Shown piece after piece: positions 48,201 to 51,200 of a stretch of 64,000 nucleotides of DNA; the stretch's first letter is position 1; every line of letters starts with the position of its first letter. A program made the position numbers and the translations under genes. The notes under the pieces are model-generated. The model was not told the origin of the DNA, searched no databases, and saw only the letters and a list, made by a program, of their open reading frames with translations. The DNA comes from Octopus vulgaris (Eukaryota). The stretch is from NCBI GenBank assembly GCA_951406725.2, contig OX597815.1:85374001-85438000 (forward strand), written 5' to 3'.

Positions 48201-51200
48201 ATTATTGCTTTGCATATTTTTATTTAACAGTAAGCTCCAGATTAAGGCAGTGGCAACAATAATAAAAAATATCACTAGTTTTAGAGTATTTAAACATAAT
48301 TGCTTGATGGTTTCACTTATATCCGAGTTCCTAAATTTATAATTGATATTCAGCTGCTTGATGTCAGTTATTAGGTAATAGAGAAACAGTAAAAGGTAAG
48401 CTATTCTGCAAAAGTTTCAAAAGAAACAGTATGAAAGATGAATGGCAGCAGCAACTGTAGCTAATGATTTTAAAATGTTTTTTTTTTTTTGATGCAACTG
48501 TCCACTAATAATTTCCTATTGTAGTGAGGATTTCTCAAATTCTGTAAGCAGTCACAACTTTAATAGATCTTTGCTTCCTGATTAATTTGTCTGTTTCTGT
48601 GTTATTGTTGCTACTCCACATTCTAACTGATATTATTGTTGTCCTAACTGAGTGGGTGCACTGCCTAATTCTGTGGCTTCCTTTTAGTCGCCCATCATGT
48701 TGTCTGAGCACTAATGACGATGGGGATGGGCCATGCTTGGCCCCCACCCAACCCTCCCTGTTTAGTCCCGCAGTGTTTTGTGCGTCCAATGGAGATGAAG
48801 AAAGCTGCAGACGAAGCGAAGATGAGATTTGCACACATCGATGGCGACCATTTGACGCTGCTCAACGTCTACCATGCTTTCAAACAAAGTAAGTTATTCA
48901 GCTTTATATATTTACTAAACTCTCGCTGATTTTAGTAATGAAATCTTAATTTCTTATTTCTTTATTCAGATTAACTAGGATCGTTTATTAAAACCATAGT
49001 AATTTTGAGTCTAAAGTAATTACTTCAATTAGCTTTAGTTTATTATAGTTTAAATTTTGATTCAATTGCATGGGTATGTTTTTATGAAAATTTAAAGTTT
49101 CATATTGTCATTTAAGTTTTTAGGATTTTTTAATTAGTGAATAAGGTGAAATATATTGAATTAGTGTATTTTAAGGGAATCTAATCAGCTTCCAGTTACC
49201 TAATCTAACCAGCTTCTAATTCTTGAATCTAACCACTTGCTAATTGTCTTTGAATGACCTAACTTTTCAGAATAATAAAGGAGAATTTTCCATTATCATC
49301 ATTATTACTATATTAGTATTGATATTGGTAAATTGCTTTTACTTTAGATCATGAAGACCCACAATGGAGTTACGACAATTTTGTGAATTTTCGATCTATG
49401 AAAAGTGCTGATAATGTCCGACAGCAGCTGGCCCGGATTATGGATCGATTTAATTTGCGTCGCTCAAGTACAGAGTTTGCAAGTCGGGACTACTACATCA
49501 ACATTAGGAAGGCTTTGGTAGCTGGTTTCTTTATGCAGGTTAGTAAAGTGTTCATAGTTCTAAACTTTGTTGACTGCCTGCTTTTTCGTTTGTCTGCAGA
49601 GATATATCAAATAGAATGGTTTTGTGATTGTGAAACCTGATTGCTTTGCTTCAGTTGGAAGGGATACTGCAGTGTAACTATATGGTGCAAATATGGTAAC
49701 TTTCTAAGTAGTTTTTGAAAACATCACAAATACATTTAGGTGTGGGGATTTTTTTTTTTCTTAGAAGAAATTGGTTAGGTAGAAAGTTGAGCTATATAAG
49801 CTATGTAAGAATACAGGAAAACCTAGAGAAATAATGAGCTCTAAGTGGGAAGCTTCTCCATGTTTGCTTACTTACTAGTAATGAATTGAATATATTATGA
49901 ATAATATTTAAAATGATTGATATTTATTAAACTTTATTCTTTACAAAATAAAGAAATGTAAAAATTTCAATTATTTTAAGAGCTTTGGTGGTCAGTAATA
50001 GTGTTGCATAATCTTTCTCGGGTGTCTTTCTACCAAACGACCTAGGTAAATAGAAGCAAGTAGTATTTAATGACTTTTAAGACAATAATGTAGGGTGTGA
50101 ATTCACAATCTGTGATGTGAATTAAGTTTTAATTAACTAAACATTTGACTCTTTAACTTTGATATGAGACCATAGATCTGCACCTAGCAAGTTTTGCTTC
50201 AGTTTGTGTTGACTAAGCACAGCATGGAAACACTGGATTGTCCTTTTGGGATGTGGTGTTCGGTCTTTCTATTCTACTGATATTCTCCAAGAGAAAGGCA
50301 AGTGTTGAAACAGCTTGACACAAGTGGTATTTCAAAAGCTGCCAGAGCAATGTTGGAGACAATATCAGACTGTCTTAGGGATCCCTACTCTTGATTTATA
50401 GTCAGATTGGACCAGGAAAGATATATGGCAAAGTTAATCTTTGATGGGATTTGAACACGTAACCTAAAGAACAGTACTGTAAGATATTTTGTCCAATGTT
50501 ATGCTTCTGCCATCTACCACCCATCAACCGACTATATATCACCTAAATGTACTTAGTTTAATGTGATACCTTTACTTACTTAGTACATCCTAAGATGGCA
50601 AACAAATTTTTGTTTTGTTAAATTCCTCAAGTGATTGTCTTTTTTTTTCTTAATACTATTCCATTTTATTGATTTAGTAGAGTGGGTGATTTTTAAACTT
50701 CAGCAATCTTCTATCCCATCACTCTGCACCTCATCTTTGTCTCTTCCCATTAGCATTTCCCTCCAATAAAGGTTATTATAATATTGTAAGAAATTGAAAG
50801 GGAGGCAAAGGGATAACTGTTTGAGCAATCCCAGTGTCTCATGATTGAGGTGACAACAGTTGTGTTCAACTTAAGCTAGTTTATTTAATCTTGGATATTT
50901 CAAACAATAAACTCAAGTCAGAGTGATTATGATCTTGAATTGCTTAATGTATCATTAGTTAAGACAATTTTGAAATTTAATTTCCATACTGAGGAATAGA
51001 AATGGTAATTAGTATTCTACATCCACAGTTCAAGTCTTTTTGGGATTGATAAAATAAGTACCAAGATAGTAACTGGGGTTGATTCGTCTTTCTTTTCTAG
51101 TTTAGGAAGGAATAGGTGCAAATGGTTGAGATTAGGGCGAATTCTATGCTTTGATTAGGGAACAGATGAAAATAGCAAAGATTTGCCTGTACTTTATGCT

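Follow-up and report, generated by a model that had tools for sequence, protein, structure and literature searches.

The real object in intron 9 of the Octopus vulgaris DHX15/Prp43 gene is a conserved 3' splice site, probably structured, that lies beside a poison acceptor in use. The conserved part consists of the last ~60 nt of the intron, where a branch-point motif is followed by a predicted GC hairpin. We suggest that the choice between the two acceptors of intron 9 forms a feedback valve on the level of DHX15, with the quality-control activity of DHX15 as its input, and give this reading a probability of roughly 0.48.

The window, the whole 64,000-nt stretch of DNA that was analysed and to whose first letter all octopus coordinates refer, is a single-copy stretch of the 2.8-Gb genome (contig C2). 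It carries the DHX15/Prp43 coding gene on the plus strand (12015..57271), whose 13 exons encode 735 amino acids; the spliced coding sequence translates exactly into protein P0121 (Octopus vulgaris/sinensis), and the gene identity and exons given in the preliminary description are correct. Exon 9 (43179..43370, plus strand) ends in a donor that RNA contigs join to both 48688 and 48766, by GT..AG joints with exon-9 letters as loose ends at both, and exons 10 (48766..48888, plus strand) and 11 (49348..49538, plus strand) are defined by translation in the coding frame. Intron 1 (12065-29959) measures 17.9 kb, more than three times the length of any other DHX15 intron, and open frames on the minus strand at 61809-63746 are presumably reverse-transcriptase/endonuclease fragments of retroelements.

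The likely branch point of the productive acceptor is the motif at 48711..48715 (plus strand), the only YTRAY in the last 62 nt of the intron; its branch A, predicted to be A48714, lies 51 nt from the AG, and its AA column is invariant in alignment A3. Between this motif, the last CTAAT of the intron, and the productive AG lies a conserved predicted hairpin that the preliminary description had overlooked. It comprises two GC stems (48721..48750, plus strand), in which 48721-24 pair with 48747-50 and 48728-33 with 48738-43 around a four-base loop, and is predicted by folds, consensus, pair counts and models built without octopus. A C-rich tract then leads to the productive acceptor AG48765 (48751..48765, plus strand). 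With 61% GC, compared with 16-30% at the other 11 acceptors of the gene, a C-rich tract and a branch distance of 51 nt, this is an odd intron end, whereas the poison acceptor AG48687 upstream has a textbook geometry (19 nt, U-rich).

The octopus hairpin is present in every fold, with ordinary stability (z -0.8 to -1.3). Three of six pairs change on both sides in alignment A3, a count reached by 3 of 500 shuffles; in the model-fitted alignment A6, two of six pairs do so, 50 of 500 shuffles score as high and a slide by +1 scores equally, and the counts in both rest on few independent lineages. Since stability is ordinary and covariation thin, we treat the hairpin as a predicted structure with modest support. 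Pairing between the branch motif and the acceptor was rejected as a general feature, as its probability is 0.00 in octopus and high in one lineage only. Rfam searches gave no family at gathering score for 47500-50500 (best E 0.77) and no matches in eight related loci. The branch motif also overlaps an in-frame ATG that is open into exon 10 (48714-48765), and a C-terminal DHX15 fragment could be made from it. Gene models of fish, pangolin, frog, Mya and plants begin at the same intron end; these may be retained-intron annotation artefacts.

Related loci were taken from metagenome contigs scanned with the exon-10 frame (best 80 of 365 relatives). The codon position of intron 9 (LS|VP) is the same whether a locus is of animal, plant or other eukaryote type. 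The animal set comprised 19 loci including octopus, with the duplicates L004, L005 and L030 and a near copy of L055 (L056) left out. Eleven of the 19 share one layout, in which a CTAAY-like motif stands 48-66 nt before the AG and is followed by a G-rich arm, a loop and a C-rich arm; because five of them (L011, L013-L016) are close relatives, this corresponds to 7 of 15 lineages. A post hoc descriptor combining the distant branch motif with the hairpin matched 11/19 intron-9 ends, 1/47 control acceptors in the same genes and 355/10,823 random YAGs. Eight animal loci are without the element (hymenopteran-like L003, Daphnia-like L017 and six others), and in L018 the GC-rich hairpin is present and the matching branch motif absent. 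In L016 the branch motif and 5' arm recur, as an incomplete second copy, within intron 10 (1158-1216).

An HMM of 10 non-cephalopod intron ends, free of exon bases, had its sole significant match in 264 kb of octopus DNA at 48706-48764 (E 3e-4; next 3.6), and a covariance model built without octopus gave 33 bits (E 3e-5) for a match ending at 48765, the 10 training loci of both having been picked by eye. The octopus site also ranked first for an HMM of all 18 unselected animal loci (E 0.033) and, as a non-significant match (E 2), for one restricted to one locus per lineage with no selection. Models for introns 7, 8, 10 and 11 placed their own octopus acceptor outside the top three, and when octopus introns 8-12 were compared with the 80 loci by blastn, the only matches were of low complexity. 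In a poorly resolved protein tree, L006 groups with the bivalve Dreissena (0.99), L002 falls among crustaceans (0.80), L030 (the duplicate of L029) stands beside vertebrates (0.94) and L008 joins L014-L016 (0.94). Intron sequence recognisable between octopus and bivalve-like, crustacean-like and chordate-like loci is rare. In the introns aligned here the end of intron 9 is kept across animals, which supports that part of the preliminary description; the branch-point arrays were not found in the other animal loci examined.

For vertebrates and insects the evidence consists of translations, in proteins that gene callers have read through intron 9 into exon 10. The end of the homologous vertebrate intron is strongly conserved in these read-through translations, as had been anticipated; vertebrate DHX15 may carry an ultraconserved element (200 bp or more identical in human, mouse and rat) near the homologous exon, and the literature searched gave no link between ultraconserved elements and DHX15. 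Eighteen intron-derived residues are identical between pangolin (P0198) and bullfrog (P0276), and Fundulus and Ameca have the same last 7 residues; worked out by hand, the frames of the latter two, one base apart, would fit the same upstream sequence as pangolin and bullfrog. Ameca further matches a vertebrate-type protein over ~75 intron-derived residues. The read-through ends in PCL in octopus and these vertebrates, FCL in Mya, HCL in Gryllus and HYL in Timema, and Gryllus and Timema have 16 of their 17 last residues in common. An off-frame translation of the octopus sequence aligns with protein P0202, which has an exon of non-cephalopod type, over both the hairpin and the upstream acceptor (E 3e-7); this suggests a poison acceptor common to P0202 and octopus. 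Thirty of 104 intron-starting proteins run spliced into exon 11, 15 of the 30 being assembly-derived rather than gene models (in a biased search without a control intron), a hint of retention or extension of intron 9 in other species.

RNA contigs were examined for 8 of 23 listed runs, from six studies; none of these runs is recorded as RNA, and they were treated as such since all show GT..AG exon junctions. The productive junction (43370-48766) is present in X1, X3, X6, X2, X13 and X17. The poison acceptor AG48687 (48623..48687, plus strand) is U-rich and preceded by three CTAAY, the nearest predicted branch A, A48668, lying 19 nt from the AG; besides the matching translated motif in P0202, it is marked by the junction 43370-48688 in two of the eight runs, both from study P1 (1/6 studies). 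Contig depth is 189 in X1, against 534 for the normal junction, and 206 in X2, against 390, ratios that are rough and cannot rank introns because there is one depth figure per contig. The junction is absent from the listed joints of X3, X6, X12, X7, X13 and X17, which is weak evidence because contigs drop variants. Use of this acceptor extends exon 10 by 78 nt (48688..48765, plus strand), a form also covered by a separate contig of X2 (48686-48793), and brings in an in-frame TGA at 48705-48707. The reading frame then stops after residue 540; nt 1623 is the last of the stop codon, and the last junction (2165) follows 542 nt later. This spacing exceeds the distance of >50 nt used to recognise AS-NMD and is non-diagnostic, given that a premature stop also arises at 79 of the 80 YAGs that lie up to 300 nt before the exon 2-12 acceptors; for the same reason, a premature stop from an alternative acceptor is not evidence of design. 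The high contig depth of the +78 form in P1 may reflect weak decay or nuclear retention.

The preliminary description had assigned premature stops to four alternative acceptors around exon 10. The stop codons are all as described and AG48687 is spliced in X1 and X2, but AG48524, a 19-nt microexon and CAG48773 were not seen used: among the joints listed for the eight runs there is no junction to 48525 or 48774 and none of the microexon. The first of these regions (48461..48549, plus strand) holds two CTAAT, AG48524 and a GTAAGC donor for the possible microexon. Contigs of X1, X3 and X12 cross 48525 unbroken, those of X3 and X12 also cross 48688, and in all four of the runs concerned (X1, X3, X6, X12) unspliced contigs span most of intron 9. 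Low-depth contigs of X1 (8.8) and X2 (5.4) run without a break across AG49270; its use was not seen among the joints listed from donor 48888, which lack even the normal exon 10-11 junction and are thus uninformative. In three other loci (L006 ~1240-1330, L008 ~800-860, L015 ~4790-4840), 170-250 nt before exon 10, an acceptor has a good GT donor after it. These pairs resemble the octopus microexon candidate, and a shared cassette exon is possible. Intron 11 (49539-54328) shows unspliced contigs running inward from the exon-11 donor in X2 (depth 87, 1997 nt), X7, X13 and X17 and pieces in X3 (49828-53326, depth 30; 53371-54355, depth 99), with little cover in X1 and X6; it is possibly a second retained intron or an intronic end.

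Feng et al. (10.1101/2022.11.14.516533) report that introns repressed by DHX15 have splice sites that are weaker and branch points that are multiple and distal, and that loss of DHX15 increases the use of proximal alternative 3' sites; according to Maul-Newby et al. (PMC8925973), A complexes accumulate on DHX15 depletion. Compared with the DHX15/SUGP1 quality control described there, the octopus productive acceptor, with a distal branch motif in an intron that has several, resembles the repressed class. The feedback valve might then operate as follows. The 30-nt hairpin would shorten the effective branch-to-AG distance to ~20 nt yet slow assembly, and DHX15, when plentiful, would remove U2 complexes from this suboptimal productive site. 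The rejected transcript would be retained or spliced at the upstream acceptor and would then decay, and with DHX15 scarce the productive site would pass. Its sign may count against the feedback: should the "proximal" 3' site be the one closer to the donor, the poison form would go up when DHX15 is lost, which is the wrong sign for negative feedback. Also against it are the restriction of the poison junction to one study, the ordinary stability of the octopus hairpin, the thin covariation and the lack of the element in 8 of 19 animal loci. In the main text of Feng et al., the terms autoregulat, own, poison and feedback have no occurrences.

In flowering plants, this intron contains a conserved element of another kind. 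It takes up ~200 nt at the end of the Prp43 intron in eleven loci with an exon matching flowering-plant DEAH2/3, and its median pair score is 264 versus 25 for the preceding 200 nt (9 loci). The element contains two branch-like motifs and upstream AGs, has no Rfam match, and shows little covariation in its consensus fold (3/34 pairs). A pair of YAGs precedes the acceptor by 90-112 nt in 8 of the 11 loci, and almost all of these sites lead to a stop. The plant element was located at ~4800-5004 in L033 and also in L024, L025, L028, L034, L035, L038, L039, L041, L046, L047 and L057. Homology with the animal element was not detected: the plant HMM finds nothing in octopus or the animal loci (best E 1.1 and 3), and a 10-mer common to both (nominal P 0.03, post hoc) supports no claim of homology. 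A wider version of the feedback, which we regard as speculative and on balance unlikely, would have animals (branch point and hairpin) and flowering plants (the 200-nt element) each keeping a hard test acceptor with an easy poison acceptor at the same junction, in an intron as old as the animal-plant split, so that the amount of DHX15/Prp43 would be set through the proofreading of its own transcript.

The conservation and junction data fit equally well a switch whose readers are other factors of the early spliceosome (U2AF, SF3B1, SUGP1, RBM5/10, SPF45-SR140-CHERP), through which DHX15 would be matched to its partners or to the general splicing load. This reading, which we consider unlikely though the most serious of the rivals, draws on the sign problem raised by the proximal 3' sites used upon DHX15 loss, and on the increase of DHX15 protein upon knockdown of SPF45, SR140 or CHERP in PMC8594467. 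According to the same source, however, mRNA changed only for the factor knocked down, and the element itself has features reported as DHX15-repressed. Alternatively, the hairpin could be a switch responding to tissue or condition, for example temperature or a tissue-specific RNA-binding protein, rather than part of a homeostatic loop. The poison junction is abundant in both P1 runs and unlisted in six runs of five other studies, and the fold is only marginally stable, like that of an RNA thermometer. We nevertheless hold this to be improbable, as the element is conserved over lineages of very different bodies and temperatures, and the absence of the poison junction from the other studies counts for little where contigs drop variants.

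The preliminary description had proposed that exon 10, bracketed by two branch-point arrays, forms a test substrate that reports DHX15 activity; in this version the arrays would be the sensor and would load decoy U2 complexes on both sides of the exon. The motifs it had counted are present: six CTAAY before exon 10 (48461, 48505, 48623, 48644, 48665, 48711) and seven before exon 11 (49181-49259), with no like cluster elsewhere, the remaining 10 acceptors carrying 0-2 CTAAY per last 310 nt. Both clusters exceed the background, the six-motif (255-nt) cluster only moderately. Background maxima are 3 CTAAY per 83 nt and 4 per 255 nt (40 strands from 20 stretches of 10 kb, both strands, same chromosome), and under a Poisson model 64 kb should hold 7e-7 clusters of the seven-motif kind and 0.009 of the six-motif kind. 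The seven-motif array with AG49270 (49177..49270, plus strand) includes a degenerate 24-nt tandem repeat of 2.5 copies (49177-49235, TRF), so its motifs are not independent and their number is partly explained by the repeat. In none of ten other animal introns 10 are the motifs densely clustered (nine have 0-3, one has 6 across 1859 nt), and the last 310 nt of intron 9 hold 0-2 CTAAY in the other 18 animal loci, compared with 6 in octopus; the arrays are therefore at most an octopus (or cephalopod) elaboration. The two introns flanking exon 10 each have a well-formed upstream AG (48687, 49270), 78 and 77 nt from the real acceptor. Quaking and other STAR proteins bind the consensus ACUAAY; a binding array of this kind was rejected, since only 2 of the 13 motifs carry an A before CTAAY.

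We judge a sensor made of these arrays quite improbable. It would account for two above-background clusters flanking one exon and for the paired upstream AGs, and multiple branch points mark DHX15-repressed introns, but the arrays were not found in the other, non-cephalopod animals examined, one is in part a tandem repeat, and AG49270 is bridged unbroken by low-depth contigs; the bracketing of exon 10 as a functional unit thus finds no support. Least probable of all, and very much so, is that the intron is constitutive, the hairpin merely offsetting the distance of its branch point, and that use of the upstream acceptor reflects splicing noise: the near-universal stops from upstream YAGs (79/80) and the lack of the element in 8/19 animal loci would agree with this, but primary sequence and pairing are kept over great distances, the poison junction lies far above noise level in P1, and plants conserve 200 nt in the same intron.

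The feedback valve on DHX15 is the reading that we favour. In the literature searched, including the accessible parts of PMC12002318 and PMC9675575, there is no description of DHX15 autoregulation or of the element, although supplements of Feng et al. or tables of ultraconserved elements may list the intron. DHX15 sets the strictness of spliceosome proofreading and is linked to SF3B1/SUGP1 mis-splicing in tumours, so the control of its dose matters. Because the 60-nt element at this defined junction is apparently in vertebrates too, the feedback can be tested in existing DHX15-depletion RNA data and with a minigene. A naturally conserved, structured 3' splice site would also serve as a model substrate for branch-site quality control.

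Genes for splicing factors (SR proteins, hnRNPs, core snRNP proteins) contain AS-NMD modules, often inside ultraconserved elements. The octopus locus resembles these in being a core splicing gene in which an event adds a premature stop and the flanking intron is deeply conserved. It differs in that the conserved part is the productive acceptor, with its distant branch motif and predicted hairpin, rather than a poison cassette, and in that the product, DHX15, is not an RNA-binding activator but a spliceosome-discarding helicase, the feedback being a proposal here. In yeast introns, hairpins between branch point and AG shorten the effective distance, and one of them senses temperature. A long branch-to-AG distance with a predicted stem between is common to these and the octopus intron; unlike the yeast hairpins, a single element is kept in the same DHX15 intron across several animal phyla. 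Neural microexons have a long branch-to-AG stretch that is unpaired according to PMC12871342, whereas the octopus stretch is predicted to be paired. The USSE of U11-48K/SNRNP48 and U11/U12-65K/RNPC3 (PMC5473595) is also a conserved element resembling a splice signal; it directs the choice of 3' splice site to an unproductive one upstream, and the gene around it encodes part of the machinery by which that signal is recognised. The USSE consists of tandem U12-type 5' sites that are unused for splicing and acts through U11 (PMC5473595); the tandem arrays of octopus, by contrast, were not found in other animals, and the octopus element is a used U2-type branch point and acceptor with a predicted hairpin.
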